From NCBI GenBank assembly GCA_040905465.1, contig JBBDRK010000004.1, forward strand, positions 48,020 through 63,425: a DNA stretch of 15,406 nucleotides, given 5' to 3'. This document shows, piece by piece, positions 1 to 15,373 of the stretch (positions within the stretch are counted from its first letter, which is position 1; each line of letters begins with the position of its first letter). The stretch is from Trueperaceae bacterium (GTDB taxonomy: Bacteria > Deinococcota > Deinococci > Deinococcales > Trueperaceae). The notes under the pieces are model-generated. The model ran no database searches. It worked only from the letters and a program-made list of their open reading frames with translations, and had not been told where the DNA came from. The translations under genes were made by a program, and so were the position numbers.

Positions 1-135
1 TGGAGCCAACGGTCGATGACAGCCGGGGTGCGTCTTGATCGAAAGGCGCTGGTACCTGTGCCACAGCCGCGGACAGCCCGTGGAGCCAACGGTCGATGAC
101 AGCCGGGGTGCGTCTTGATCGAAAGGCGCTGGTAC
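1..135. repeat. Exact 55-bp direct repeat (1-55 = 81-135), 80-bp period
   Basis: TGGAGCCAAC...GAAAGGCGCTGGTAC occurs at 1-55 and 81-135 and diverges at the next base (C vs G). It sits at the window edge and may be an assembly artefact. Confidence 0.95.
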
Positions 136-1611: not shown

Positions 1612-1666
1612 AGGCTGAGTGAAGGGTTGAGAGCCGGCGCAGAGGTGGCTGCGCCTGTCGGGTGCC

Positions 1667-1695
1667 TTGTCTGCCGGAACCCTATCGGCTAAGCT
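1667..1695 (+). promoter_or_regulatory. Putative sigma70-type promoter of the ABC binding-protein gene
   Basis: TTGTCT (1667-1672), 17-bp spacer, TAAGCT (1690-1695). RBS GGAGG at 1758-1762. Confidence 0.55.
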
Positions 1696-1710
1696 TGCTG
1701 TCAAGTACTT

Positions 1711-1756
1711 CACTTCGGCACTGCACTTCGGCACTGCACTTTGCGGCACTGCACTC
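1711..1756 (+). repeat. Short tandem repeat CACTTCGGCACTG (2 exact copies, one 15-bp variant, one partial)
   Basis: 1711-1723 and 1724-1736 are identical, 1737-1751 reads CACTTTGCGGCACTG, then CACTC runs up to the RBS. Confidence 0.9.
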
Positions 1757-1766
1757 TGGAGGCTTA

Positions 1767-2516
1767 ATGAAACGACTGCTGGTGGTCCTGACAATCCTGG
1801 CCGGCGTGGCTATCGCCCAGGCACCCGACCTCGATGGCCGTGTCATCGTTGTGGGTTCCGACACGACCTATCCCCCCTTCGAAACGGTGAACGACCAGGG
1901 TGAAATCGTCGGATTCGACGTCGATGTGGTCAATGCCGTGTGCGAGCAGGTCAATTGCGTAGCCGAGTTCCAGACCACAGCCTGGGACGGCATCTTCCCG
2001 GCGCTCGCCGCCGGCGAGTTCGACATGGTCGCTTCCGGCGTCACGATTACCGAAGAGCGCGACCGCGTCGTCGACTTCACCATCCCCTACTTCGAGGTCG
2101 ATCAGGCCATTGCGGTCCGGGTAGAGGATGAGGACCTGGCGCTCGAGGACTTCACCGAGGGCGGCGACCTGACACTGGGGGCGCAGACAGGCACCACCAA
2201 CGCGGCCACCGCCGAAGACCTGGTGGGACGCGATCGCGTTCGCCTGTACGACGACTTCAACGCCGCCATACAGGGCCTGCTCAACGGTGACGTCGACGGC
2301 GTCGCCATCGACGACGTGACAGCCGACGCCTTCGTGCAGCAGTATGCCGGCGAGCTGGCCGTGACGATTCGCGAGGTGGAGTCCGGCGACAAGCTCGGCT
2401 TCGCCGTTCAGGAGGGTGACGAACTGGTCGATGCCCTGAACGCCGGCATCGAAGCGATCGCGGCCGACGGCACGCTCGACGACCTGATCGCCAAGTGGTT
2501 CACCGCCGGCAACTGA
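1767..2516 (+). CDS. Polar amino-acid ABC transporter substrate-binding protein (PBPb / SBP_bac_3 family)
   Basis: Start moved to ATG 1767 (GGAGG RBS; MKRLLVVLTILAGVAIA-Q signal peptide). Motifs: GSDTTYPPFE, GFDVD, WDGIFPALAAGEFDM, TITEER, VDFTIPY, GAQTGTT, GLLNGDVDG. Confidence 0.95.
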   Translation: MKRLLVVLTILAGVAIAQAPDLDGRVIVVGSDTTYPPFETVNDQGEIVGFDVDVVNAVCEQVNCVAEFQTTAWDGIFPALAAGEFDMVASGVTITEERDRVVDFTIPYFEVDQAIAVRVEDEDLALEDFTEGGDLTLGAQTGTTNAATAEDLVGRDRVRLYDDFNAAIQGLLNGDVDGVAIDDVTADAFVQQYAGELAVTIREVESGDKLGFAVQEGDELVDALNAGIEAIAADGTLDDLIAKWFTAGN

Positions 2517-2537
2517 GCCGAGCCAGGAACTGTTCAC

Positions 2538-2572
2538 GTGAAGAGGCCCGGGGCATCCCCGGGCCTCTTCAC
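2538..2572 (+). terminator. Perfect 16-bp hairpin after the binding-protein gene (terminator or mRNA stabiliser)
   Basis: GTGAAGAGGCCCGGGG-cat-CCCCGGGCCTCTTCAC, starting 22 nt after the stop codon. There is no long U tail. Confidence 0.75.
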
Positions 2573-2712
2573 ATTGCAGTCGCCGGAGTCGAAGGCCGGG
2601 GCAGCAGAGATCTCCCGTTCGCAAGTCACCCCGCGCAACGGGCAGAACCGACCGGTTCCGGCGGGTCCGGACCGATTGCGCTAGACTCGCCTCCAGTGAG
2701 GAACCGATAACG

Positions 2713-3909
2713 TTGCGAAAGACCCCCCTCCCCGGCTCGGATCGGTGGCGCCTGCTGCGCCGGGTGCGGCCCAGCTATTTGCTGCTTCTCCTCGCCATCC
2801 CGTTCATCATCTACCTGTTCGCCACTGTGGAGAACTACCGCGCCGCGATGGTGTTCATCGCCCCTGGCTTGTGGACCACCATCCGCGTGACGGTGGTCGC
2901 CTATCTGGTCGCGGCCATCCTGGGTCTGGCTCTGGCCGGCCTGTTGCTGATGAAGTCGGGGCGCTCCACGTTTCCCGTCTTTCTGGCGATTTCGCTGCTG
3001 CTGGCTGCCGCCAGCGCGTTCTTCTTCACTCGGGACCGAGTGGAGTACGTTCTGGTCGGCGAGCAGCAGGGACTGGTGGCCATCCTCCAAGGCACACCGT
3101 CGAACCTGAGCCGGACGATCCAGCGCGGCCGCTTCGACGAGGACGCCGAGCCCCGCAACATCCGCGCCGTAGTCAGCGCCGAAGCCGGCCTGCAGCGCCT
3201 GGAGTCCGGCGTGGTCGAGGCAGCCTTCCTGCCCGTGTCGGAGGCCCCCGCCGACCTCCCTGTGCTGTGGCAAACCAGCTTCCTGCCACCGGACAGCAAA
3301 CGACCAGGACTGTTCACGGCGGTACTGGCGGTGCTGACCCTGCTGTTGACGTTTGCCGCATGGCAGAGCGGCAAGCACCCGCTGGCGATCTTTGCCGAGC
3401 TCTACGTCGACGCCCTGCGTGGCATTCCGATGCTGGTCATCATCCTCTACATCGGCTTCCCGGTCCAGGGGGCAGTTCGTGACATCAGCGGCGGAATGCT
3501 CGAACCGTCACGCCTGACCCGCGGAATCATCGCCATCGCCCTCGGTTACGCCGCTTACATGGCGGAGGTGTTTCGTGCCGGGATCCAGGCGATTCCCCGC
3601 GGCCAGATCGAGGCGGCCCGCTCGCTCGGTCTCGGCGGCTGGCAGACCGCTCGCTTTGTAGTGCTTCCGCAGGCGCTGCGCATCGTCATACCGCCACTAG
3701 GCAACGAATTCATCGCCATGCTCAAGGACACCTCGCTGCTGTCGCTGCTCTCCTTGCGCGAGATCACCCAGCGAACCCGCGAGTTCGCCGCGGACACCTT
3801 CGAGTATTTCCCCGCCTTCAACACGGTAGCCGTGCTCTACATCGGTCTAACTCTGGCAGCCTCCAGCCTGCTCAAGTCGGTCGAGCGCCGCAGCGAGACA
3901 CCGCGTTGA
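2713..3909 (+). CDS. Amino-acid ABC permease (HisM/GlnP type) with an inserted TM / binding-protein-like lobe / TM module
   Basis: Core motifs: GLWTTIRVT, YVDALRGIPMLV, AYMAEVFRAGIQAIPRGQIEAARSLG (EAA loop), PQALRIVIPPLGNEFIAMLKDTSL. At 398 aa it is much longer than a typical core permease. TTG start with GAGGA upstream. Confidence 0.92.
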   Translation: MRKTPLPGSDRWRLLRRVRPSYLLLLLAIPFIIYLFATVENYRAAMVFIAPGLWTTIRVTVVAYLVAAILGLALAGLLLMKSGRSTFPVFLAISLLLAAASAFFFTRDRVEYVLVGEQQGLVAILQGTPSNLSRTIQRGRFDEDAEPRNIRAVVSAEAGLQRLESGVVEAAFLPVSEAPADLPVLWQTSFLPPDSKRPGLFTAVLAVLTLLLTFAAWQSGKHPLAIFAELYVDALRGIPMLVIILYIGFPVQGAVRDISGGMLEPSRLTRGIIAIALGYAAYMAEVFRAGIQAIPRGQIEAARSLGLGGWQTARFVVLPQALRIVIPPLGNEFIAMLKDTSLLSLLSLREITQRTREFAADTFEYFPAFNTVAVLYIGLTLAASSLLKSVERRSETPR

Positions 3910-3987
3910 ATAGCACGGCGGCGAGCCGCGCTTGTCGGGAATCCGAAGTGCTTCCGCCCTGAGTCGATCCGTCATCTCATCTAGACT

Positions 3988-4398
3988 ATGGACGTGACGG
4001 GCTTCGACGACGCAGAGTATCGTCGGTGGCTGTCTCAGGCCAACCACACGAGGGACTCCGCAGGGCGTGATGCAGCCTCGGGCGACTATTCCTGGTCGTG
4101 TTTCAAATCACAGCAGGCCGGTGAGTACGCGCTACAAGCGCTCCTGCGTGGATTGGGCCAACCGGCACATGGCCACGCGCTGCGGCGCTTGCTGTCAGAA
4201 CTGATGACCCTATCGATAGAGGTGCCGGAGGCGGTCATGGAAGCCGGACAGGCGCTCGACCGACATATAGTGCCCACCACGCGATACGCCGATGCCTTTC
4301 CCGAGGGAAGCCCTCACGAGTATTACAATCTTGGCGCAGCCGAGGAGGCGCTAGGTGCAGCCGATAAAGTCATCGACTGGGTTCAAAGCGCTGCTTGA
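3988..4398 (+). CDS. HEPN domain protein (COG2250-like, MNT-associated type)
   Basis: Motifs: RRWLSQA, GDYSWSCFKSQQAGEYALQALL, GHAL..LL, LDRH..PT.RY.DAFPEGSP..YY...AEEAL. The real start may be GTG 3994, 6 nt after TAGACT. Confidence 0.88.
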   Translation: MDVTGFDDAEYRRWLSQANHTRDSAGRDAASGDYSWSCFKSQQAGEYALQALLRGLGQPAHGHALRRLLSELMTLSIEVPEAVMEAGQALDRHIVPTTRYADAFPEGSPHEYYNLGAAEEALGAADKVIDWVQSAA

Positions 4399-4539
4399 GC
4401 GGCGGCGGAAGGAACGCGACGGCCTCATCACCGCCTCGTCGAAGGCCGTGAGGAACCGAAGGGACTGCTGCCGCGCGAATTCGCCCGGCTCGCGGCGGAC
4501 GGAAAATTATGGCATCTGGAGGAGGCACTGGAACTTTAA
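4382..4539 (+). pseudogene. Internally deleted minimal nucleotidyltransferase (MNT) remnant
   Basis: One frame overlapping the HEPN stop gives ALLERRRKERDGLITA, like an MNT N-terminal helix. A different frame from 4438 gives VEGREEPKGLLPREFARLAADGKLWHLEEALEL* (TAA 4537-4539), like an MNT C-terminus. The GS-x-ARG / DxD catalytic core is absent. Confidence 0.6.
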
Positions 4540-4614
4540 GCGGCAAACTCGGTTGTTCACGGCCGAAGGAGGAAACCTTGCCGATTCGACCCGGGGCGCG
4601 CGATACTGTCTCGC

Positions 4615-5703
4615 ATGCCCGTAGCCCAGGTCGACCTCGCCGCTCTCCGACACAACCTGGAGCTGCTGCGGCGCCGACTCGAGCCGGGCTGCCGGCTGTT
4701 GGCGGCCGTCAAGGCCGGCGGCTACGGGCATGGCGCGGCGCCGGTGGCACGGGCGCTGGAAGCGGCCGGGGTGGAGTGGTTCGGCGCCGCCACTCCCGAA
4801 GAGGCGCTCGAGCTCAGGGAGGCCGGGGTACGAGGACGAATCCTGCTCCTGGGACCGGGGTTCGCACGGCTGGCCGAGCTGGTGGAGGCCGGGGTCGACC
4901 TGACCGTGTGCGATCGGGCGTCGGTCGACTCGATCAGGCACTGCGGTACGCCGGGCAAGGCACGGGTGCACCTCAAGGCGGACACCGGCATGGGCCGAAT
5001 CGGCTTGCCGGCAGCCGCAGCCCTCGAGTTGGCGAAGGAGCTGGCGAACGACCGCCGCCTGCGCTTCGAAGGCGTCTGGACTCACTTCGCCGCGGCGGAC
5101 GAAGCTGACCGCCGCTTCACGGAGATGCAGATCCAAGCCTTTGGAGAGTTGCTGGGGGAGCTCGAGCGGCTCTCGATACGCCCGCCCCTGGCGCACACCT
5201 GCAACTCAGGCGGACTGCTGGCCTTCCCGGAGGCGCATTTCGATCTGGTGCGCCCCGGAATAGCGCTCTACGGCTATCCGCCCAGTGACGAAGTCGCCGC
5301 GATCGAACCCAACTTTCGCCCGGTCATGACCGTCACGGCTCCGGTAACGTTCGTGAAGCGGGTGGCGGCGGGAACTGCGATCTCTTACGGAGCGACCTGG
5401 CGGGCACCGCGCGAAACCACCGTCGCGACGGTGAGATTCGGCTACGCCGACGGCTACCCGCGGCTGCTGGCGAATCGCGGTTGGGCGAGAGTTCATGGCC
5501 GGCGTTGCGACGTGGCCGGCCGGATCTGCATGGATCAGTTGATGCTGGACGTGGGGGATCTCGACGTCTCCCCGGGAGACCGGGTCACTCTCTTCGGGGC
5601 CGCGGGTCCTTCGGCGGGCGAGCTGGGCGCACTGGCGGGCACGGTATCGTACGAGATCCTCACCTCGGTGTCACAGCGGGTGGCACGCGTGTATCTAGAC
5701 TGA
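4615..5703 (+). CDS. alr: Alanine racemase
   Basis: AAVKAGGYGHG (PLP lysine), HLKADTGMGRIG, THFAAAD, VRPGIALYG, ISYGATW (catalytic Tyr), GYADGYPR, GRICMDQ, GTVSYEIL. Confidence 0.97.
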   Translation: MPVAQVDLAALRHNLELLRRRLEPGCRLLAAVKAGGYGHGAAPVARALEAAGVEWFGAATPEEALELREAGVRGRILLLGPGFARLAELVEAGVDLTVCDRASVDSIRHCGTPGKARVHLKADTGMGRIGLPAAAALELAKELANDRRLRFEGVWTHFAAADEADRRFTEMQIQAFGELLGELERLSIRPPLAHTCNSGGLLAFPEAHFDLVRPGIALYGYPPSDEVAAIEPNFRPVMTVTAPVTFVKRVAAGTAISYGATWRAPRETTVATVRFGYADGYPRLLANRGWARVHGRRCDVAGRICMDQLMLDVGDLDVSPGDRVTLFGAAGPSAGELGALAGTVSYEILTSVSQRVARVYLD

Positions 5704-5722
5704 GCGGCATGCGACTCGAAGC

Positions 5723-7159
5723 TCAGCCCTCATCGGCTTGAGGCTCCTGACCGACGGTTTCGCCGACTACCTTCAACTTCGCCAACACTCGTTGCACCCG
5801 GCGTTCATCGGCCTCATCGACAGTGAAGTGCACCGAGGCGAAGTCGAGCGTCTCCCCTACCCTCGGGATGTAGCCGAACTCGGAGATCAGGAAGCCTGCC
5901 AGAGTGTCGTACTCGCCTTCGTCCTCGAAGACGATCTTCAGCTCGGCGGCTACCTCCTCGAGGTGGGCCGAACCGAGGATGCGGTAGTGCCCCGCTCCGA
6001 GGTCGACGATGTCCTCGTCCTCCTCGATGTCTGTCTCGTCGTAGATCTCGCCGGTGATCTCCTCGATGATGTCTTCCAGGGTTACGACACCGGCGGTTCC
6101 TCCGAACTCGTCCACCACTACGGCGATGTGGTTCTTGCGGATGCGCATGTCGCGCAGCAGCGAGAGGATCGAAAGGGTCTCCGGTACGTAATGAGGGGAG
6201 GTCATGAGGTCGCTCACCATCGTCGACTCGAGCGCCTCGGGTTGGCCCAGGTAGGGCAGCAGGTCACGGGCGTATACGATCCCCCTGATGTTGTCGACCG
6301 TGTCGGAGTAGACCGGCAGGCGGCTCACCCGGTGTTCCGTGGTCAGCTCCAGAAGTTCTCGCAGGGTGGCGCCCTCGGCAACGGCGATCACGTCGACTCG
6401 CGGGGTCATCACTTCGCGGACAACGGTCTCCTCGAGATCGATGATGCCGCGGATCATCGCCTGCTCCTGCGCCTCGATGACGCCCGATTCCTCGGCGCTG
6501 CGCAGCATCAGCCGTAGCTCGTTCTCGGTGATGAGCGCCGCCGAGGCGGGCTCGAGCCGCAACAGGCGGAGAATCCCGTTCACCACGAAGGTAAAGAACA
6601 GGCCTACCGGATAGAGAACTATCGACAGTACGTATACCGGCAGGATCACTGCCCGCGAGAACGACACCGCATTGTGAACGGCGATCGACTTGGGCGTGAT
6701 CTCGCCGAAGATCAGCACCAACAGCGTCATCACCCCGGTCGCGTAGCCCACGGCGAGCGATTCGGAGAAGCCGAGCGAGCGCGACATGCCGATGCTTATC
6801 TGGGTAACGAGGGCGGTGGCGGCGATGTTTACCAGGTTGTTGCCGATGAGCAATGTTGTGATGAAACGGGTGGGCTCGCGCTCGAGCAACGCGAAGACTC
6901 CCGAGGGGTCGCGCCCGTCCTCACGAAGCTGCCGGATCTTCCACTCGCCGAGCGCCGTCAGCGCGGTTTCGGAGCCGGACAACAGGCCCGACAGGAGCAG
7001 CAACAGTACCACCAGGGCGATCTGACCGAAGCCGATGCTGGCCGTCTCGGCGCCCTGCGCCAGCACGATCCCCATCAACGGCATCAGCAGCAGCGCCGGA
7101 ACCACGCCCATGCGCAGCCTGCCAGGGCGTTGCTGTCGGGCGTATCGACTGTCATCCAT
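5723..7159 (-). CDS. CNNM/DUF21-CBS-CorC (HlyC/CorC family) Mg2+/Co2+ transport-associated membrane protein
   Basis: SGLLSGSETALTAL, TLLIGNNLVNI, LIFGEITPKS, VREVMTPRVD, SRLPVY, VVDEFGGTAGVVTLEDIIEEITGEIYDE, YDTLAGF. Start reassigned to ATG 7159 (MDDSRY) because the longer ORF overlaps the divergent kinase gene. TGCTACAAT lies upstream. Confidence 0.93.
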   Translation of the reverse strand: MDDSRYARQQRPGRLRMGVVPALLLMPLMGIVLAQGAETASIGFGQIALVVLLLLLSGLLSGSETALTALGEWKIRQLREDGRDPSGVFALLEREPTRFITTLLIGNNLVNIAATALVTQISIGMSRSLGFSESLAVGYATGVMTLLVLIFGEITPKSIAVHNAVSFSRAVILPVYVLSIVLYPVGLFFTFVVNGILRLLRLEPASAALITENELRLMLRSAEESGVIEAQEQAMIRGIIDLEETVVREVMTPRVDVIAVAEGATLRELLELTTEHRVSRLPVYSDTVDNIRGIVYARDLLPYLGQPEALESTMVSDLMTSPHYVPETLSILSLLRDMRIRKNHIAVVVDEFGGTAGVVTLEDIIEEITGEIYDETDIEEDEDIVDLGAGHYRILGSAHLEEVAAELKIVFEDEGEYDTLAGFLISEFGYIPRVGETLDFASVHFTVDEADERRVQRVLAKLKVVGETVGQEPQADEG

Positions 7160-7170
7160 CGGTTGGCCGG

Positions 7171-7260
7171 ATTGTAGCACAGGCCCGCTCGGCAGCCGGA
7201 CCCCGGGTCGGCGCCAGCTTGCCGCCGACCCGGGTTTATACTCTTGCGAGGTTGTGGAGG
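7171..7260. promoter_or_regulatory. Divergent promoter region (CBS gene / kinase operon) with a central 12-bp inverted repeat
   Basis: Minus-strand extended -10 TGCTACAAT (7179-7171), plus-strand -10 TATACT (7237-7242) and RBS GGAGG (7256-7260). Inverted repeat CCCGGGTCGGCG-9nt-CGCCGACCCGGG at 7202-7234. Confidence 0.6.
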
Positions 7261-7264
7261 TTGC

Positions 7265-7867
7265 ATGTCGTACATAGTCGTCGAGGGAGTTATCGGCGTG
7301 GGCAAGACGAGCCTCAGCCGGCTCCTGGCCGAGGAGTTGAGCGCCCGGCTGGTGCTGGAGGTGGTGGAGGAGAATCCGTTCCTCGCGCAGTTCTACGAGT
7401 CCCCTGACAGGTACGCGTTCCAGGTGCAGACGTTCTTCCTGCTGTCGCGCTTCAGGCAGCTGCAGGAGCTCGGCCAGCAGCCGCTGTTCGAGCGGCACAC
7501 TGTCGCCGACTACCTCTTCGACAAGGACTTCATCTTCGCGTCACTGAACCTCGTCGGCGCTGAATGGGAGCTGTATCGCGAGCTCTACGATCACCTCCGT
7601 CCGCGGCTGACCACCCCCGACCTGGTCGTATACCTGCGGGCCGATCCCGACCTGTTGCTGCAGCGCATCGCCCAGCGTGGCCGCCCCTTCGAGCGCACTA
7701 TCGAGGCCGATTACCTCCGGCGCCTCGGCACCGCTTACGACGAATACTTCGCTCAGTACCAAGGTCCGCTCAAGCGTATCGAGGCGGCCGCGGTGGACTT
7801 CGTGGGCAGTCCCGGAGACCGCCGCGCCATCGTCGACCAGATCCTGGAACGCGCGAAGGCGGCCTGA
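7265..7867 (+). CDS. dgk: Deoxynucleoside kinase, Dgk-like
   Basis: ATG 7265 after GGAGG. P-loop EGVIGVGKTS, ENPFL..FY, FQVQTFFLLSRFRQ, ADYLFDKDFIFA (DY type, as in Bacillus Dgk), PDLVVYL, RGRPFE. Substrate specificity is inferred. Confidence 0.85.
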   Translation: MSYIVVEGVIGVGKTSLSRLLAEELSARLVLEVVEENPFLAQFYESPDRYAFQVQTFFLLSRFRQLQELGQQPLFERHTVADYLFDKDFIFASLNLVGAEWELYRELYDHLRPRLTTPDLVVYLRADPDLLLQRIAQRGRPFERTIEADYLRRLGTAYDEYFAQYQGPLKRIEAAAVDFVGSPGDRRAIVDQILERAKAA

Positions 7868-7868
7868 G

Positions 7869-8522
7869 GTGTACGTGGCCGTGGCCGGCAACATCGGAGC
7901 CGGCAAGTCGACGCTTACCCGCCTGCTTGCCGACACCTTCGGTCTGGCGCCGGTTTTCGAGGCGGTGGAGGAGAACCCGTATCTGGAGGATTTCTATCGC
8001 GACATGCGGCAGTTCGCCTTCCACTCCCAGATGTTCTTCCTGGGCAAGCGGCTCGAACAGCACCTGGAGCAGGTCAACCCGGCGCAGCGGGTGATCCAGG
8101 ACCGCACCATCTTCGAAGACGCCGCGATCTTCGCCCGCAACCTGCACGAGGAACGGATCATGTCGGAGCGCGACTATCTGAGCTACCTGCAGATGTACAG
8201 GGCGATCAGCCGGACCCTGCGGCCGCCGGACCTGCTCATCTATCTCGAGGCGAGCCTGCCGACACTTCGCCGTCATATCGACCAACGTGGGAGATCGTAC
8301 GAGGCCGACATCGAAGATGCCTACCTGCAGCGGCTCGACAGTCTGTACCGGGCCTGGATCGGCGACTACGACCTGTCCGAGCTCCTGGTGATACCGGCAG
8401 ACGAGCTGGACTTCGTGCACAGCGACGAGGACCGTGAGACGGTGTTGGAGATGGCGGAACGTCGCGGTCTTACCCGTCCCATGGTGGCTGTACCGAAGGC
8501 GGACTCGCTGGTGCAAGGATGA
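7869..8522 (+). CDS. dck: Deoxynucleoside kinase, Dck-like (dAdo/dCyd kinase type)
   Basis: GTG 7869, 1 nt after the upstream stop. AGNIGAGKST, ENPYLEDFY, QDRTIFEDAAIFA, PDLLIYL, RGRSYE. Substrate specificity is inferred. Confidence 0.85.
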   Translation: MYVAVAGNIGAGKSTLTRLLADTFGLAPVFEAVEENPYLEDFYRDMRQFAFHSQMFFLGKRLEQHLEQVNPAQRVIQDRTIFEDAAIFARNLHEERIMSERDYLSYLQMYRAISRTLRPPDLLIYLEASLPTLRRHIDQRGRSYEADIEDAYLQRLDSLYRAWIGDYDLSELLVIPADELDFVHSDEDRETVLEMAERRGLTRPMVAVPKADSLVQG

Positions 8523-8580
8523 CCTCGGGCGTAGCGGTAAAGGCGCCGAAGCGCGGGCCGGGCGGGTCTCGGGAGAGCCG

Positions 8581-10044
8581 GTGAAACTGAGCGAGCTGGC
8601 AAAAGAGTCGCTGGGCATCGTGGAGGCGTTGCCGCCGGTCGACGTGACCGGCGTGTCGCAAGACCATCGGAAGGTCGCTCCCGGACACGTGTTCGTGGCG
8701 CGCGTGGGCTCGAAGTTCGACGGCCACCGCTATGCCCGGTTGGCGATCGAGCGGGGCGCGGTGGCGGTCGTGGGGATTCATGACGGGGTGCCGACCCTCC
8801 CCTGGAACTCTACGCCCTATCTGCGGGTGGCTGATGACCGCGAGGCCGTCGCCCGTCTGGCGGCAACCTTCCACCGCTACCCGTCGTGCGCCATGACCAC
8901 CATCGGCGTGACCGGCACCGACGGCAAGACTACCGTGTCGTTCCTGCTCCACCATCTGCTTTCCGCCTCGCTGCCATGCGGCCTCATCAGCACCGCCGCC
9001 GTGCGCTCGGCAGACGCTCCGCTCCCCCTGGAAGGGCATTTCACCACACCCGAGGCAACCGAGGTACAGGCCTATCTGGCCGCCTTTCGCGACGACGGTT
9101 GCAGCCACGCCGTGGTCGAGTCGAGCTCCCACGCGCTGTCGTTGCGCAGGCTCGACCAGGTCGATTACGACGTGGCGGTATGGACCAACCTCAGCGCCGA
9201 GCATCTCGACCATCACGGGTCTTTGGAGGCGTATCGCGACGCCAAGCTCGAGCTTGTGCGCAGGTCAGGCACGTCGGTTCTCAATCTCGACGACCAGCAC
9301 TTTCCCGCTTTCGCGGACGCCTCGCAAGAGGTGGTGAGCTACGGCCTCGCCGACGATGCGACCTGGCGGGCCGGCGCCGTCAGCGAGTCCGCCACCGGAT
9401 TGGAGTTCGACGTGCACGTAGCCGGCGACGTGCTCAGGGCGGCGCTGCCGATGCTCGGCGCATTCAACGTCCACAACGCCCTGGCCGCCCTGGCAGCAGC
9501 GCACGTTTGCGGCGTCTCGCCGGCCGCAGCGGTGGAGCGGCTGGCGCGCTTCCCCGGCGTACCCGGCAGGATGCAGGTCGTTCATGCAGGGGCCTTTGCC
9601 GTGGTGGTGGACTTCGCCCATACCGGACCCGCTCTGGAAAAGGCGCTGGCGGCGTTGCGGCCGGCCGCCGAAGGCCGGATTCTGCTCGTCGTCGGCGCCG
9701 CAGGCGAGCGCGATCCCGGCAAACGGGGCCCGCTGGGTCGAGCGGCGGCGAATGGCGCAGACCTGATCTTTTTCACCGAGGAGGACCACCGCAGCGAGTC
9801 GCTGGATGCCATTCTCGACGAGTTGACACTCGCGGCCAGGGAAGCCGGGGCGGAGGGCGAGCGAATTCACCGGGTACCGAACCGGCGTGAGGCGATCGCC
9901 GCCGCGGTGGCGGCGGCGCGCGAGGGAGACCTGGTGTTGCTGGCCGGCAAAGGGCACGAGTCGAGCCTCGAACGCGCTTACGAGACGATTCCCTGGGACG
10001 AGGCGGCGGAAGCGAGACGGCAGCTCGAACAGAAGCAAGGCTAA
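8581..10044 (+). CDS. murE: UDP-MurNAc-L-Ala-D-Glu:diamino acid ligase (MurE)
   Basis: GTG 8581 after GGGAGAG. G..FDGH, GVTGTDGKTT, TTPEA, ESSSHAL, TNLSAEHLDHHG, PGRMQ, VDFAHT, GERDPGKR, LAGKGHE. Confidence 0.95.
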   Translation: MKLSELAKESLGIVEALPPVDVTGVSQDHRKVAPGHVFVARVGSKFDGHRYARLAIERGAVAVVGIHDGVPTLPWNSTPYLRVADDREAVARLAATFHRYPSCAMTTIGVTGTDGKTTVSFLLHHLLSASLPCGLISTAAVRSADAPLPLEGHFTTPEATEVQAYLAAFRDDGCSHAVVESSSHALSLRRLDQVDYDVAVWTNLSAEHLDHHGSLEAYRDAKLELVRRSGTSVLNLDDQHFPAFADASQEVVSYGLADDATWRAGAVSESATGLEFDVHVAGDVLRAALPMLGAFNVHNALAALAAAHVCGVSPAAAVERLARFPGVPGRMQVVHAGAFAVVVDFAHTGPALEKALAALRPAAEGRILLVVGAAGERDPGKRGPLGRAAANGADLIFFTEEDHRSESLDAILDELTLAAREAGAEGERIHRVPNRREAIAAAVAAAREGDLVLLAGKGHESSLERAYETIPWDEAAEARRQLEQKQG

Positions 10045-10054
10045 AATGCGACTC

Positions 10055-11338
10055 ATGCGCCCCGTAGACGTCATACTTGCAAAACGCAACGGTGAGAGGC
10101 ACGCGCGCGAGGTACTCCGGGAGTTCATCGGCGACTACGTGGCCGGGGAGTTGCCCGACTACCAGGTTGCGGCCTGGTTGATGGCCGTTTGCTTCCAGGG
10201 GATGGACGAACGCGAAACGGCCGACCTCACCGAGGTGATGGCCGCCTCGGGCGACACCCTCGACCTCTCCGAACTCTCTCATACCGTGGACAAGCACTCT
10301 ACCGGTGGTGTGGGAGACAAGACGAGCCTGGTGCTCGCGCCGCTGCTGGCAGAGGCTGGCGGCACGGTCGCCAAGATGAGCGGCCGGGGACTCGGCCATA
10401 CCGGCGGAACGGTTGACAAGCTGGAGAGCATCCCCGGCTTTCGTAGCGAGCTGTCTCACGAAGAGTTCCTGAAGCAGGCAGCCGCCATCGGCGTGGTGGT
10501 CAGCGGACAGTCGAAGCAGATGGCTCCCGCAGACGGCCTGATGTACGCCCTGCGCGACGCTACCGGAACCGTCGAGTCGCTGCCACTGATCGCAGCGTCG
10601 ATCATGAGCAAGAAGCTCGCCGGTGGCGCCGAATCGATAGTGCTGGACGTCAAGGTCGGCAGCGGTGCTTTCCTGCGCACCCGAGACCAGGCGCGCGCGC
10701 TGTCGAAGCAGATGGTATCGATCGGCCGTCACTCGGGACGTCGGGTCCGCGCCCTCCTTACCGGCATGGAGCAACCGTTGGGGAACGCCGTCGGGAACGC
10801 CCTCGAGGTCCAGGAGGCTGCTCGCTGCCTTCGCGGCGAGGGACCCGCCGATCTCACCGAGCTGTGCCTGGCGCTGGCGGAACAGGTCCTGGACGCTTCC
10901 GGACTGGACGGCCGCCGGGAACATCTGATCGAGCTCCTGTCGAGCGGGCGCGCATATGGGCGTTTCGAAAGCTGGGTGGAAGCGCAGGGAGGCGATCCGG
11001 CCGCGGTCGACCGGCTCGAGCTGGCTCCGGGCCGGGAAACGATCACGAGCCCCCGCAGCGGCGCGCTCAGCTCACTCGACGCCCTTGCGCTCGGCCGCGC
11101 CGTTAGTCTGCTCGGCGGCGGTCGGAGCCGCAAGGGTGAGGCGATCGACTACGGGGTAGGCGCCGTGATTCACGGCAAGATCGGTGACGAGCTGATGCAA
11201 GGCGATCCGCTGGTGACATTGCTCCATCGCGACGGACGGGGACTAGGCGAGGCAAGGGCGCTCGTGGCGGCGTCGATCTCGGTTTCCGATCGCGCGGCGG
11301 TACCACCGCTCGTTCTGGAGATCAACCCAGTCGACTGA
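10055..11338 (+). CDS. pdp: Pyrimidine-nucleoside / thymidine phosphorylase
   Basis: MRPVDVILAKRNG N-terminus, PDYQVAAWLMA, DKHSTGGVGDK, KMSGRGLGHTGGTVDKLESIPG, LIAASIMSKKLA, LDVKVGSGAF. ATG 10055 lies 7 nt after TAAAAT; ATG 10046 is an alternative start. Confidence 0.96.
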   Translation: MRPVDVILAKRNGERHAREVLREFIGDYVAGELPDYQVAAWLMAVCFQGMDERETADLTEVMAASGDTLDLSELSHTVDKHSTGGVGDKTSLVLAPLLAEAGGTVAKMSGRGLGHTGGTVDKLESIPGFRSELSHEEFLKQAAAIGVVVSGQSKQMAPADGLMYALRDATGTVESLPLIAASIMSKKLAGGAESIVLDVKVGSGAFLRTRDQARALSKQMVSIGRHSGRRVRALLTGMEQPLGNAVGNALEVQEAARCLRGEGPADLTELCLALAEQVLDASGLDGRREHLIELLSSGRAYGRFESWVEAQGGDPAAVDRLELAPGRETITSPRSGALSSLDALALGRAVSLLGGGRSRKGEAIDYGVGAVIHGKIGDELMQGDPLVTLLHRDGRGLGEARALVAASISVSDRAAVPPLVLEINPVD

Positions 11339-11392: not shown

Positions 11393-12199
11393 TCAGTTGT
11401 GCTTGGCGCAGGAGAAGCGGCCGTGAGCGCTCATCAGTTCCGGCTCCGGCATGAACGCTCCGTTTCTCGGAGCGACGATCCGGCGCCGTGCTACCCGCGG
11501 TTCGGACCACGGTTCACCCAGGGCGAAACCTTGGAAGAAGGACACGCCGCGCGAAGCGAGTCGCGCCAGCACATCGATGTCCTCGACCCCTTCGGCGACC
11601 AGCAGGAGGCCGCTGTCGGTGGCCTCGTCCAGGAACTCCTGCGCCTCGCTGGGCGTGTGCTCGGCGGCCAGGGCCGGCAGGACGCTGCGGTCGAGCTTCA
11701 GACCGTGAACCGCGCCTCGCAGGGAGGATATCCGCTGTTGCGAACCGGGCGTGATGTCATCGAGGAAGATCCTGACTCCGCTGGCGGCCAGACCTTCGAG
11801 TACTCGCGGCAACTCCGGTTGATCGATAATCGGGTCTTCCGTTAGCTCCACCATCAGGCGGCGCCGTACTCTCAGCGGAGCCTGGCCGATGACGGCGGTC
11901 GCTACAGGCAACTCGACCTGTCGCGGGCTGAGATTCACGGACAGCGCCGGCAGGTAGGGATCGGCGTCCAGGCGCGCCAGGGCGAACTGCAGGGAAAGGC
12001 GCGTGAACGACTCGATCCGCTCGGGGTGCAGCAGGCCGGCCATTATCACGGACGGTCCCTGGATGGTTCCGTCCTGCAACGACCGGCGCGCGAGCGTCTC
12101 GTACGCCAGCAACCGTTTGCCGTCAGCGGCGAGTATCGGTTGGAACTGGAACGTCAGGCCGAATAATGGATTCTGAGAGTTCTTGACGTTGATCGACAC
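11393..12199 (-). CDS. Stand-alone EAL domain protein (c-di-GMP phosphodiesterase-like)
   Basis: FQPI, YETLAR (EAL variant), SVNLSP, VELTE, FLDD, LKLDRS, VAEGVE, FQGFALGEP. No GGDEF or sensor domain. The start codon is uncertain (GTG, no clear RBS). Confidence 0.9.
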   Translation of the reverse strand: MSINVKNSQNPLFGLTFQFQPILAADGKRLLAYETLARRSLQDGTIQGPSVIMAGLLHPERIESFTRLSLQFALARLDADPYLPALSVNLSPRQVELPVATAVIGQAPLRVRRRLMVELTEDPIIDQPELPRVLEGLAASGVRIFLDDITPGSQQRISSLRGAVHGLKLDRSVLPALAAEHTPSEAQEFLDEATDSGLLLVAEGVEDIDVLARLASRGVSFFQGFALGEPWSEPRVARRRIVAPRNGAFMPEPELMSAHGRFSCAKHN

Positions 12200-12220
12200 A
12201 GTCGGGAGGGGATGGGTCGA

Positions 12221-12397
12221 TCAGCCGGGGTCGACATCGTCGGGGTTGCTTCCACCTGCGAAGCTGACCTGAACGTTGTCGAGGCTGGCGAAACCGATCG
12301 CCGCGAGCGGGGTGGCGGCAAGGACCAGCGCGAGCGCCAGCTTGGCGGCAATGCTACGAATTACGGTGGGGGCGGCGAATTCTGTGGGGGTCATCAT
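12221..12397 (-). CDS. Small putatively secreted peptide precursor, 58 aa (not in the ORF track)
   Basis: GGAGG RBS 6 nt before the ATG. Translates as MMTPTEFAAPTVIRSIAAKLALALVLAATPLAAIGFASLDNVQVSFAGGSNPDDVDPG*: basic residues, a hydrophobic core, small-residue cleavage sites and a short acidic tail. Codons are mostly G/C-ending. The stop is 21 nt upstream of the EAL gene on the same strand. Confidence 0.75.
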   Translation of the reverse strand: MMTPTEFAAPTVIRSIAAKLALALVLAATPLAAIGFASLDNVQVSFAGGSNPDDVDPG

Positions 12398-12428
12398 GGT
12401 ATTCCTCCGGGGGCTTGCTTCGGACGGA

Positions 12429-12513
12429 AGGTTACGCCCTGGCTGGTTGAATTCTCGTTGAGTTTTTGAGCCGGCCTACTTCCACGGGAATTCGACTGCT
12501 CCTCGGCCACACT
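12429..12513. promoter_or_regulatory. Back-to-back activator-type promoters with paired 16-bp boxes
   Basis: Minus strand: TCAACGAGAATTCAAC (12461-12446), 11 nt, TAACCT (12434-12429). Plus strand: TCCACGGGAATTCGAC (12481-12496), 11 nt, CACACT (12508-12513). The boxes are 13/16 identical. Confidence 0.6.
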
Positions 12514-12560: not shown

Positions 12561-12737
12561 ATGGACAGATATCAGGCACGCAGGTTATTCGAGGCCAGCC
12601 GGCGCTTCCCATGCAGAGCGGGTGGAATATTGGTACGGGATGTCGAGCTCGCGGCGATGATTGCGACGGTCAAAGCGGAGCGCCGTGCCCCGGCCCAGCA
12701 GCGCCCATACCAGTGCATGGAGAGTCGTGCGGGCTGA
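12561..12737 (+). CDS. Small hypothetical protein, 58 aa (not in the ORF track)
   Basis: GAGGAG RBS (12549-12554) 6 nt before the ATG. MDRYQARRLFEASRRFPCRAGGILVRDVELAAMIATVKAERRAPAQQRPYQCMESRAG*. It lies downstream of the boxed plus-strand promoter. Confidence 0.5.
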   Translation: MDRYQARRLFEASRRFPCRAGGILVRDVELAAMIATVKAERRAPAQQRPYQCMESRAG

Positions 12738-12919: not shown

Positions 12920-15373
12920 GTGTGGCTCGAAGATCGCTTCCGCCTGTGCCCGGTTTCGGGCAAGGCTCTGGTACTGCACGGCGGTGAGGAGTACGGTGCG
13001 CCCTTCCTCGTCGACCGCTTGCGCCGGGAGCGTGCGGTGGCCTGGCTGGCATTCACGCCGGCAGAGGCGAGCGACCGGGTGGCGGCAGGCAACAAGCTTG
13101 CGGACGCAGTCAACGAGGCGGTAGAAGGAAATCTCCTCCAGCATGCGCTGCCGTACCTCGTTCACCTGCGCTCGCTGAGCCTGCGCCGCACCCAGCTTCC
13201 GCCGTTTACCCTGGTCGTGTCGGGCGCCGACCTCGCACCCGAGTTCGCCCAGGCGGCGGCGCAGGCGTGCCGCAGTGGATTCGGCCTGTGGCTCCTGGCA
13301 AGCGACGGGCCCTCGGGCTTCGATGGGCCGGCGGGCATCGATGCCCTGCACCTGCGGCCCTCCGACCTGCGCCTGACGCTCGCTGAAGCGAGACGACTCG
13401 CACCGAGCGGAATCGGCGACGGCGTGGTGGCTCGGATTCACGACCTCACCGAGGGCGCCTACACCCGCTTTCTCGGCGAGATGCACAAAGAGTCGGGTCT
13501 GCCCGAGATAATGGTTCCGCACGCTGAAGGCTGGGTCTACCCGGAGCATGAGGCGCGCCGGGAACATCCCGAGGACGTTGTGGAGGCGCTGCTGCGGCTC
13601 GGCCGGCAGGTCGACGCGCTGGAAGTCGCCGCCGAGTCCCTTCCCGGGCGCGTCGAGGAGTTGCTGCACGAGGCCGGTCCGGAGTTCCAGAACCAGGGTC
13701 TCCTTCCGCGCCTGCACCTGTTGCTTTCCACGTTGCCACCACCTTACGACGAGCGCGAGCGCACGCTGGAATGGCGGCTCGTGGCAGCGCATCAGGCTGG
13801 CGCGGCGCAACAGGTTGCCAAGCAGGTACGCCGGTATTTGAGCGTTCACGAAGCGCCCGAGTTGCGTGCCCGCTACGCGGCTTTCGCGCCATACTCCGAG
13901 GGCCTGAACCAAGCGCGGCGGGCAGCAACCGCCCTCCCTTCCCCCCTGACGCTTTGGCAGTACGGGCGAATGCTTCCCGATCCCAGCCAGGGCATCGAGC
14001 TTCTGACCCGCAGCGTTTCGCAGGCGGAACTGGAGGGCGACCCGTACGCCTGCGTGCGAGCGGCAGGCACGCTGGCGGCGAGATTCCTGCATCTAGGAGA
14101 CTTCCATTCCGGTAGATCGTGGGCCGACTGGGGACTCCAACTGTACGACGAGAACGCCCTCAGAGACGGGATAAGGCGCCTGCACCTTTTCAAGGAGCTT
14201 GCTTTCGCACGCACGATGCTGGGCGAGCTGAGCGGGCTGCGCGAGCAACTTCAGGATGGCCTCGCCACGGTCGAGAACGTGCTACCCGACATGGCGTCCA
14301 GCTACCGCGACGCCCTTGCCGACCTCGAGCGGCTCGAAGCCGACCCGCTAGTGGCGGCCGAGTACACTAAAGCGAACCTGGACACCTCCCCGCGTAGACA
14401 GAAAGGTCTCCGCGCTCACCAGCACGTGAGAAGCCTCCTGGAGCTCGGCAAGGTTGCAGAGGCCGCCGATGTGGCGCGTGCCGCCGCCGCTCTGAGCGCC
14501 GGGGCATCCGTGATGCAGGATCTCAGGGCGCGCCTGGCGGTCGGCATGGTGCAAGCCTTCGAAGATCCTGACAGTGCCGCCGGCACACTGACAGAGATCA
14601 TGGAAAACCCGGAGTTGATCTTCGACCAGCGGGCGCGAGCAGCCCTCCACTACCTGCTGGCGCGGCCGTCCGGAGCCGGCGATATCCCCGAGAACCTGCG
14701 AAGCAAGCTGGAGAACCTGAGCGACACCGCCCTGCGCGTCCTGAGTGGTCCGCCGGAAGCGTTCCACAAAATCTGGATGGACCTCACCGGCGGGCGCAAT
14801 GCCGCGCTCGAGTTGCGCGTGCTCGGCAAGACCAGTGCACGGCTGGAAGGAGTGGAGTTGCGCCTCACCCGCCGGCAGTGGGAGATACTAGTAGCGCTGG
14901 CATTGCATCCGGAAGGGCTGGGGTATGACGCTTTGCATGCATTCTTGCTGCAGGACGATAACCGCCTCAGCCCGGGTACGCTACGCTCCCATGTCAGCCA
15001 CCTGCGCTCCATCGTCCCTATCAGCGACAACCCGTACCGCATCGAGGTGCCCTACACGCTCGACATCGCCGCGGTCCAGGCTCACCTGCGAGAGGGCAAG
15101 GTGCGCCAGGCCATCGCGCTCGTGAACGGCAGCGTGCTGCCGAGCAGCAGCCTTCCCGGGATACGCGACACGGGCGAGCAGCTCGACCAGGCTCTCCGCG
15201 AGAGCGTACTGACCAGCGGCGACCCGGAGGCGCTCTACTGCGCCGCCAGCCTCTGGAACGACGACCTGGAGGTCTGGGAAGCCACTCTCGCGGCCCTGCA
15301 CCCGCGCGATCCGCGGGTGCCGCTGCTGCGTGCCCGCGTGCAGTCGCTGCGTCACGAATACGGCGCGGCCTGA
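12920..15373 (+). CDS. Large transcriptional regulator: degenerate MalT-like STAND N-terminus, helical (TPR-like) sensor region, C-terminal OmpR/SARP-type winged helix with BTAD-like tail
   Basis: MalT-like landmarks: LVLHGGEEYGAPFL (Walker A position), VAWLAF, LVVSGADL (Walker B position), DLRLTLAEA, LTEG. The middle is Ala/Leu-rich and helical. C-terminus: LELRVLG...LTRRQWEILVALALHPEGL...TLRSHVSHLR...PYRI...D...GSVLPSS..PGI. Confidence 0.82.
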   Translation: MWLEDRFRLCPVSGKALVLHGGEEYGAPFLVDRLRRERAVAWLAFTPAEASDRVAAGNKLADAVNEAVEGNLLQHALPYLVHLRSLSLRRTQLPPFTLVVSGADLAPEFAQAAAQACRSGFGLWLLASDGPSGFDGPAGIDALHLRPSDLRLTLAEARRLAPSGIGDGVVARIHDLTEGAYTRFLGEMHKESGLPEIMVPHAEGWVYPEHEARREHPEDVVEALLRLGRQVDALEVAAESLPGRVEELLHEAGPEFQNQGLLPRLHLLLSTLPPPYDERERTLEWRLVAAHQAGAAQQVAKQVRRYLSVHEAPELRARYAAFAPYSEGLNQARRAATALPSPLTLWQYGRMLPDPSQGIELLTRSVSQAELEGDPYACVRAAGTLAARFLHLGDFHSGRSWADWGLQLYDENALRDGIRRLHLFKELAFARTMLGELSGLREQLQDGLATVENVLPDMASSYRDALADLERLEADPLVAAEYTKANLDTSPRRQKGLRAHQHVRSLLELGKVAEAADVARAAAALSAGASVMQDLRARLAVGMVQAFEDPDSAAGTLTEIMENPELIFDQRARAALHYLLARPSGAGDIPENLRSKLENLSDTALRVLSGPPEAFHKIWMDLTGGRNAALELRVLGKTSARLEGVELRLTRRQWEILVALALHPEGLGYDALHAFLLQDDNRLSPGTLRSHVSHLRSIVPISDNPYRIEVPYTLDIAAVQAHLREGKVRQAIALVNGSVLPSSSLPGIRDTGEQLDQALRESVLTSGDPEALYCAASLWNDDLEVWEATLAALHPRDPRVPLLRARVQSLRHEYGAA

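Follow-up and report, generated by a model that had tools for sequence, protein, structure and literature searches.

What does an open reading frame (ORF) of only 58 codons do when it lies just upstream of an EAL phosphodiesterase gene and divergent from the gene of a large regulator? The question is raised by a locus of a Trueperaceae bacterium (Deinococcota), for which we analysed a stretch of 15,406 nucleotides (nt) of the assembly GCA_040905465.1 (contig JBBDRK010000004.1, positions 48,020 to 63,425 of the forward strand), called the window throughout and numbered from its first letter. An original prediction, made from the sequence alone, had taken the ORF for a hidden propeptide with two processing steps. 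We propose that it encodes the precursor of a signalling peptide that is exported, processed and re-imported, and that it belongs to a self-contained four-gene circuit, a reading to which we give a probability of about 0.5. Judged from the sequence comparison, the module comprises the peptide gene and the EAL phosphodiesterase gene on one strand and, divergent from them, the genes of a protein of ~60 amino acids (aa) and of a regulator of ~817 aa; the coordinates are collected in Table 1.

The ORF is almost certainly a real gene. Its product, MMTPTEFAAPTVIRSIAAKLALALVLAATPLAAIGFASLDNVQVSFAGGSNPDDVDPG, runs from an ATG at 12395-12397 to a stop codon at 12221-12223 on the minus strand, and the strong GGAGG ribosome-binding site that had been pointed out for it is indeed present. 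The GC content at its three codon positions (0.66/0.53/0.76) is near that of the EAL gene (0.70/0.46/0.80), and three overlapping ORFs fit the pattern of the flanking genes less well than it does. The search for a syntenic ORF in relatives, which the original prediction had named as a check, came out in its favour: among the 31 EAL loci examined, three (L030, L048 and L050) have no usable upstream DNA and L039 holds the last three codons only, and all 27 others carry, 21-164 nt 5' of the EAL gene, a small ORF that ends in D-[AVPG]-G-stop. Its start codon is ATG at 23 of these loci and GTG at 4, with a GGAGG at most 20 nt away at 26. The ratio of non-synonymous to synonymous change (Nei-Gojobori dN/dS) was 0-0.91 in all 31 pairs with at least 60% identity, and the small ORFs of L035 and L043 show five synonymous differences and none that alters the protein. 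In these alignments the small ORF is conserved and under purifying selection. A chance ORF without function in GC-rich DNA might be suspected from the several overlapping ORFs of like length on both strands, and none of the RNA contigs of one metatranscriptome run (X8, from an ice sample) lies over the small ORF, such contigs being unable to show absence; its occurrence at 27 of 27 loci across genera, the GGAGG at 26 of them, the dN/dS below 1 and the invariant C-terminus argue against chance, to which we give almost no credence. An 85-aa ORF on the opposite strand (12212-12469, plus) overlaps the small gene, with GGGAGGGG immediately 5' of its ATG; its codon-position GC (0.69/0.55/0.62) is non-coding-like, and we take it as a chance ORF.

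The gene is hidden in the sense that it is missing from the ORF track, whereas its protein already stood in predicted-protein collections (P0001). Two other genomes of the same genus have the ORF at the same spot, with 47-49% identity and an invariant DDVDPG end, and a word-based search found one more protein with 81% identity to the product. A profile search of 1.84 billion representatives returned 7 proteins at E<=1e-10, the query included; they measure 52-94 aa and all terminate in DD[VI]D[PAV]G. Within the family, 58 of 121 genomes and 14 of 36 genera have an orthologue of the EAL protein (E<=1e-20). Pfam and NCBIfam gave no match for the peptide or for the 58-aa protein of the divergent operon, and the ESM Atlas gave unnamed clusters only, with a best score of 0.82. 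The near-identical X8 contig at 11494-11647, which has one difference in 154 nt and lies inside the EAL gene only, means that the organism or a very close relative was present in an RNA library, and a DNA contig of a second sample (X2) spans 12110-12309 without differences.

The anatomy of the product was read from a family alignment of 30 peptide members, in which export features were scored by a rule-based scan of charge, hydropathy and the -3/-1 rule. The segments that had been proposed for the window peptide (IRSIAAK, LALALVLAATPLAAI, GFA/S with the slash marking the cut, SLDNVQVSFA and GGSNPDDVDPG) are each found exactly as given, and the scan describes it by an N-flank of +1, 20 uncharged residues with a mean hydropathy of 2.59 and three -3/-1-compatible sites. 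The signal-peptide layout extends to the whole family: in all 30 members the N-flank is positive (net charge +1 to +5) and the C-flank negative, and one or more sites obey the -3/-1 rule in such a way that 18-25 residues are left. We consider it probable that the product is exported. The hydrophobic uncharged stretch, interrupted by Gly or Pro, measures 18-38 residues, long enough for a membrane span, and the first of the proposed cleavage sites has no conserved position in the alignment (Ala at its column in 13 of 30), so the product could also be an uncleaved single-pass membrane protein, N-in/C-out, whose acidic tail would stand outside, for instance as an MgrB-like modulator of an envelope sensor or a cation-binding tail. 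We regard such an anchor as unlikely: the conserved module has no gene for a membrane sensor, conservation is concentrated in the tail while only 6-19 residues would be cytoplasmic, Gly/Pro breaks are followed by small-x-small sites in 30 of 30 members, and neither the tandem repeat of the tail described next nor the predicted fit to a cytoplasmic regulator would be explained.

The second small-residue site that had been proposed is also present, its Ala (A47) being kept in 29 of 30 members. It is followed by [D/G]-[S/G/T]-[S/G], a variable part, a hydrophobic/aromatic position (V/Y/L/I/W), an invariant Asp, one of A/P/V/G and an invariant C-terminal Gly. Member length is 46-59 aa in 29 of 30 aligned members, next to one 94-aa call with an upstream start, and 69 aa in two tandem forms. 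The latter belong to one genus (L028:1147-1353, plus strand; L033:2312-2518, minus strand) and carry the post-signal module twice in tandem, reading ...TTIAGSSGQPGDVDVG ADPLAPTIWLAGSSGQPGDIDVG, with the repeated module ...AGSSGQPGD[VI]DVG. By analogy, these repeats resemble multi-copy pheromone propeptides, and tandemly duplicated RRNPPA propeptides, in the part of PMC11343458 drawn on here, have a comparable layout. The likeness to NprX that had been seen in the tail did not hold up, since SNPD occurs in only 2 of 30 members and the candidate receptor is a STAND-like/TPR/SARP protein and not of RRNPP type. A calcium-binding DxDxDG loop in the tail was dropped as a candidate, only one Asp being invariant.

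The candidate receptor is the product of the divergent regulator gene, whose domains are assigned here from models of its fold. The AlphaFold2 model, built from a 36-sequence alignment, reached a predicted local distance difference test (pLDDT) of 91.7 and a predicted TM-score (pTM) of 0.89. Among PDB structures it matches best the TPR-sensor STAND NTPase 6mfv (E 1.5e-8, TM-score 0.41/0.51, TMt 0.51), with TPR proteins next; the predicted TPR part spans residues ~215-625. The Walker A position lacks both Lys and Ser/Thr, reading GGEEYGAPF (consensus GGEAYGxPF in 36 homologues), and the NTPase is therefore probably inactive. Residues 625-817, a winged helix-turn-helix followed by a helical domain, were modelled separately (pLDDT 92.4) and match best the SARP domain of AfsR (8hvr_I, 8k60_I/J; E 6.7e-7 to 5.7e-6, TMq 0.68-0.72) and EmbR, OmpR-type domains without more having far lower fold scores. 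As modelled, the regulator would thus have the three domain kinds of a large SARP in inverted order, the SARP domain lying at the C-terminus (residues ~628-817) and not at the N-terminus where it is typically placed. Sequence searches say less: NCBIfam gave no match, Pfam gave Trans_reg_C only (18 bits against a cut-off of 26.2) and no BTAD, the regulator profile had only weak matches among PDB sequences (a designed TPR protein and ToxR), and TPR_12 reached 23 bits against a cut-off of 30.1 in orthologues, the window protein having no TPR match in Pfam at E<=0.01. The Pfam family PF27103 is recorded on the regulators in precomputed annotation. Homologues (E<=1e-30) occur in 174 of 301 genomes across Deinococcota, a tally that includes the unpublished genome G034 as one count only. 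In a homologue search with the regulator, the proteins were 794-859 aa long except for one of 712 aa and one of 459 aa. The source genome also has a regulator paralogue (L092, G000:C18:25497-27944, E 7.9e-154) with one in-frame TAG and without the arginine R318 discussed below; no peptide or EAL gene adjoins it, and it could have decayed to a pseudogene or sense a different ligand.

How the peptide could fit this regulator was addressed by complex prediction, in which the regulator with its alignment was paired with peptide residues 29-58 and the 30-member alignment, as one pairing with three controls. The pairing scored 0.61 (runs 0.60, 0.65 and 0.61) and the best of the three controls 0.00, the runs agreeing in at least 50% of contacts; the mark used for such scores is reached by 116 of 157 solved complexes and by 2 of 215 mismatched pairs, counts that are only rough for our own alignments. 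The predicted interface joins peptide residues 49-58 (GSNPDDVDPG) to a pocket of arginines in the TPR region, so that the polar tail singled out by the original prediction coincides exactly with the part predicted to touch the regulator. The regulator contacts in this model are 287-288, 291, 296, 318-319, 321-322, 325, 329, 343, 346-347, 350-353, 380, 384, 387 and 567. All 23 module regulators share R318, L343, W346, Q347 and R350, and all 22 that reach it share R380, and contacts 287-296, 321-329 and 384-387 differ clade-wise together with the variable peptide positions. Of 16 paralogues or homologues without the module, 14 have another residue in place of R318, and at 17 paralogue or out-of-module loci neither a D-x-G ORF nor an EAL gene adjoins the regulator. 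The pattern agrees with a modelled pocket that would be dedicated to the D-x-G carboxy-terminus, and shared ancestry could give the same.

Further observations concern the DNA between the two operons. Pairs of heptamers 11 nt apart stand 5' of the peptide ORF at 25 of 27 loci. Outside the window genus they are two TGAAGCG heptamers exactly 11 nt apart (22 of 24 loci), and in the window genus TTCAACG-like heptamers have the same arrangement in 3 of 3 genomes. A TAnnnT hexamer starts exactly 10 nt past the 3' heptamer at 24 of the 25 loci with a pair, and at 18 of 27 loci a pair on the opposite strand, with TAnnnT at offset 10, faces the divergent operon. SARP boxes, in the part of PMC11301090 used here, consist of direct repeats that cover the -35 region in part and stand 8 nt upstream of the -10. 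Both divergent promoters would thus appear to have the geometry of SARP boxes, and the target pattern of SARPs, heptamers with an 11-nt period near a -10, is found here as a sequence geometry. An RNA hairpin or attenuator formed by the inverted heptamers was rejected, -10-like boxes lying downstream of them both ways, so that the repeats are probably not transcribed; with boxes upstream of both -10 elements, a transcription-factor site is the better reading. A search of 18 loci with Rfam at E<=1 gave no RNA-family match for the upstream repeats. At one of the tandem-form loci, L028, three direct heptamers instead of two stand upstream.

The gene that follows the peptide gene encodes an EAL-only protein, which scores 96.9 bits in Pfam EAL (cut-off 31.3). 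In 30 EAL orthologues every residue of the catalytic and metal-binding set (ExLxR, N, ExxE, DD, K, E and Q) is 100% conserved, and loop 6 of the same 30 proteins reads DD[VI]Txx[DS].. instead of DFGTGYSS. The spacer between the two genes is 21-22 nt in the window genus (12200-12220 in the window) and 77-128 nt in most genera, and the longer spacers (among loci L025-L051) contain strong GC hairpins of -34 to -60 kcal/mol, which may uncouple the amounts of the peptide and EAL products. The short gap of the window genus, together with the lack of a Shine-Dalgarno sequence at the EAL start in the window and the other loci and with the fact that conservation is strongest in the last three codons before the stop, would also suit a regulatory leader ORF, in which either the nascent chain stalls at D-x-G-stop as a secretion monitor or translation of the EAL gene is coupled by termination and reinitiation; SecM-, MifM- and VemP-type monitors likewise pair an N-terminal export signal with a C-terminal arrest motif. 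In a variant, the regulator would bind the unexported precursor within the cell. The long gaps with strong hairpins in most genera are ill-suited to simple coupling, though, known monitors regulate Sec/YidC components and not EAL proteins, and the duplication of the tail, the conservation of the regulator pocket and the variable -3 residue would be unexpected for an arrest motif, which makes a leader function very unlikely in our judgement.

The fourth gene of the module, first in the divergent operon, encodes in the window a protein that starts MDRYQARRLFEASRRF...ILVRDVELAAMIATVK; in other genera the corresponding ~60-aa protein reads MTREEALxRLEGTWSFxxxGDxVxIRxLxLLSAVxAIRRE. This protein might assist the regulator as a co-factor or oppose it as an anti-activator, and in all genera examined the two genes are divergent from the peptide and EAL genes. 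In five 19-kb contexts no further neighbour is conserved, which matters for another explanation, namely a precursor gene for a modified peptide natural product or bacteriocin, with the SARP-type regulator as its pathway activator, as in actinomycete clusters. Researchers have found that SARPs are the classical activators of secondary-metabolite clusters (PMC10972967, in the part drawn on), and a small precursor with a conserved C-terminal core, multi-core variants and a hairpin 3' of the precursor gene in most genera would be in keeping with such a cluster. We nevertheless give this explanation very little weight, because the five wide contexts show no conserved gene nearby for a modifying enzyme, a protease, immunity or a dedicated exporter, the core is anionic, without Cys and with few of the Ser/Thr patterns of known classes, and the leader is Sec-signal-like and unlike that of ribosomally synthesized and post-translationally modified peptides (RiPPs). 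A lasso peptide or other RiPP was rejected on the same contexts, which hold no conserved maturation genes.

We return to the signalling peptide that we prefer, and infer the remaining steps of its circuit as follows. Sec would export the precursor by way of its N-terminal signal, signal peptidase I would cut it near GFA/S, and the resulting ~21-mer would probably be trimmed after Ala47 to an acidic 10-11-mer ending in D-x-G-COOH. This peptide would build up outside the cell and re-enter through an Opp/Dpp-type permease, and its C-terminus is modelled to bind the invariant-arginine pocket in the TPR sensor of the STAND-like/TPR/SARP regulator. The SARP domain, on the paired heptamers that would replace the -35 element, could then drive both divergent operons and so create positive feedback, the EAL phosphodiesterase being the putative output that lowers cyclic di-GMP (c-di-GMP). 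As for uptake, in 7 of 7 genomes of one genus an Opp/Dpp-type binding-protein gene stands directly 3' of the regulator (L052:3123-7007, minus strand; L055:12228-15146, plus strand; L109, L111, L113, L119 and L121); wherever the gene context was read, SBP_bac_5 is followed by OppB/OppC-like permeases. With 31 matches to SBP_bac_5, the genome of the window itself has the capacity for uptake.

Several observations weigh against this circuit, besides the uncharged stretch that could hold the precursor in the membrane as an uncleaved anchor. No Opp-type gene stands 3' of the regulator in the 13 genomes of other genera, and in a diderm Deinococcota cell the peptide would need to pass the outer layers as well. 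In the predicted complex, the pLDDT of the peptide itself is low, about 40 (at least 39, and 40-42), and a learned general TPR-peptide geometry may contribute to the complex score. The variable contacts (291, 296, 321, 322 and others) and peptide positions -3/-1 track the clades, and their covariation is therefore inseparable from shared ancestry. The nearest non-module regulators, L101 and L102 (loci L065 and L066, from two genera), retain R318, Q347, R350 and R380, and no peptide, ~60-aa or EAL gene adjoins them when the loci are read by eye; perhaps the gene of their ligand is located elsewhere, or the pocket is older than the peptide. On the promoter side, L026 and L037 are without a heptamer pair, and the divergent side of the window genus has CACACT or CAAACT in place of TAnnnT. 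Finally, the atypical loop 6 makes the enzyme activity of the EAL protein uncertain.

Table 1. Features of the peptide locus, in positions of the window
Feature	Positions	Strand	Remarks
Small ORF, candidate pre-pro-peptide	12221..12397	minus	58 aa + stop; conserved at 27/27 loci; dN/dS <1
Shine-Dalgarno GGAGG	12404..12408	minus	6 nt 5' of ATG; in 26/27 orthologous loci
Signal-peptide-like part, residues 1-37	12287..12397	minus	n-region to K19, core LALALVLAATPLAAI, candidate site GFA/S
Variable pro-segment, residues 38-47 SLDNVQVSFA	12257..12286	minus	ends in near-invariant Ala47 (29/30)
Conserved acidic tail, residues 48-58 GGSNPDDVDPG	12224..12256	minus	D56 and G58 invariant; candidate mature ligand
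EAL-only protein, 268 aa	11393..12199	minus	21 nt 3' of peptide stop; GTG start without Shine-Dalgarno
Direct heptamers CTCAACG (12456-12462) and TTCAACC (12445-12451)	12445..12462	minus	starts 11 nt apart; candidate SARP box, peptide-EAL promoter
-10-like hexamer TAACCT	12429..12434	minus	exactly 10 nt past 3' heptamer
Degenerate heptamers TTCCACG (12480-12486) and TTCGACT (12491-12497), with CACACT (12508-12513)	12480..12513	plus	candidate box, divergent operon
Conserved 58-aa cytoplasmic protein	12561..12737	plus	first gene of divergent operon; 21/27 loci by pattern, 5 more by eye
817-aa regulator, candidate peptide receptor	12920..15373	plus	STAND-like N-domain, degenerate P-loop, TPR-like sensor, C-terminal SARP

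The window ends 33 nt past the regulator, which is also the end of the contig. The rest of it, 115-11338, is housekeeping-like, with an MFS transporter, an amino-acid ABC binding protein and permease, an alanine racemase, a CNNM/CorC-type transporter, a deoxynucleoside kinase, a Mur ligase and a pyrimidine-nucleoside phosphorylase.

The proposed working recalls the RRNPP(A) systems of Bacillota (Rap-Phr, NprR-NprX, PlcR-PapR, AimR-AimP), in which the gene of a small propeptide with a Sec-type signal lies near the gene of a cytoplasmic TPR receptor; here the regulator is TPR-like by fold model, and the rule-based scan is compatible with a Sec-type signal in 30 of 30 peptides. In those systems the active part is the C-terminus of the propeptide, in some cases in tandem repeats, a layout that the present sequences appear to share; an Opp permease is involved there, and Opp genes adjoin the module in one genus here; and the autoregulatory layout is likely the same. 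The five-criterion RRNPP signature, as given in the part of PMC10075063 drawn on, includes Sec secretion of the propeptide, a receptor of 250-500 aa, TPRs that recognise the mature peptide, and direct gene adjacency. The 58-aa product in the window lies within the propeptide size of that signature (10-100 aa), whereas the regulator, at 817 aa, is far longer than an RRNPP receptor, and it combines, by model, a STAND-like N-domain with a SARP output at the C-terminus where RRNPP receptors have an N-terminal helix-turn-helix or phosphatase domain. The genes of RRNPP pairs are direct neighbours, but peptide and regulator are divergent here and split by the 58-aa gene, and the host belongs to Deinococcota instead of Bacillota, with an EAL phosphodiesterase as the output gene. 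No sequence match to RRNPP families was found and no Rap or NprR receptor occurs in the module (Pfam, NCBIfam). With a SARP output domain and a different phylum, we therefore speak of an RRNPP-like working and not of a member of RRNPP.

The large SARPs of AfsR type, built of SARP, NB-ARC/STAND ATPase and TPR parts, offer the same three domain kinds, and their target promoters have direct repeats with an 11-nt period near the -10 that replace the -35, as here. Unlike AfsR, the present regulator has its SARP domain at the C-terminus and no Walker A lysine, its heptamers are TGAAGCG or TTCAACG, its proposed partner is a ribosomal peptide, and it comes from another phylum; given the C-terminal domain, the degenerate P-loop and the absence of a Pfam BTAD match, it is not a typical SARP. 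The STAND NTPase PH0952 (6mfv) and the MalT clade are a further comparison: PH0952 is the best whole-chain match and shares the N-terminal NOD-like alpha/beta domain, the helical arm and the TPR sensor, but the match is moderate, with a TM-score of only 0.41/0.51, the P-loop is degenerate here, and the SARP effector is C-terminal here. The Walker A motif of STAND NTPases, GxxxxGK[ST], is not found in the regulator. The Hop TPR carboxylate clamp holds the acidic EEVD-COOH of Hsp70/Hsp90, so that an acidic free C-terminus is held by basic TPR residues as is predicted here, although the proteins are unrelated and the comparison is one of analogy. Proteins of MgrB type, SecM, MifM and VemP have a like size, an N-terminal hydrophobic segment, a functional C-terminal end and a position 5' of the regulated gene; in contrast to them, the present module has no membrane sensor or Sec/YidC gene, some family members carry the tail twice, and a fit to a cytoplasmic receptor is predicted.

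Secreted peptides read by cytoplasmic TPR receptors are treated, in the parts of PMC10075063 and PMC9765709 that we used, as a trait of Bacillota and mobile elements, and a non-exhaustive search of the literature, extending to parts of the sources, found no peptide signalling system for Deinococcota. The full proposal is that Deinococcota have a peptide quorum sensing independent of RRNPP, in which a Sec-exported propeptide, re-import, a TPR sensor with an arginine clamp, SARP-driven feedback and an EAL protein lowering c-di-GMP are joined; we put it forward tentatively, at somewhat less than an even chance. If it is true, no peptide signalling system of such type with a cytoplasmic receptor would have been described outside Bacillota before it, and the same logic would have evolved on an unrelated receptor scaffold. 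It would also provide the first natural ligand class for the sensor domain of a large SARP-like regulator and a directly testable ligand for the little-understood sensor domains of large SARP/STAND regulators. ORFs of fewer than 60 aa beside orphan regulators are worth systematic comparative screening. For the Trueperaceae themselves, an environmentally widespread and poorly studied family, it would mean that peptide signalling is tied to the turnover of c-di-GMP.

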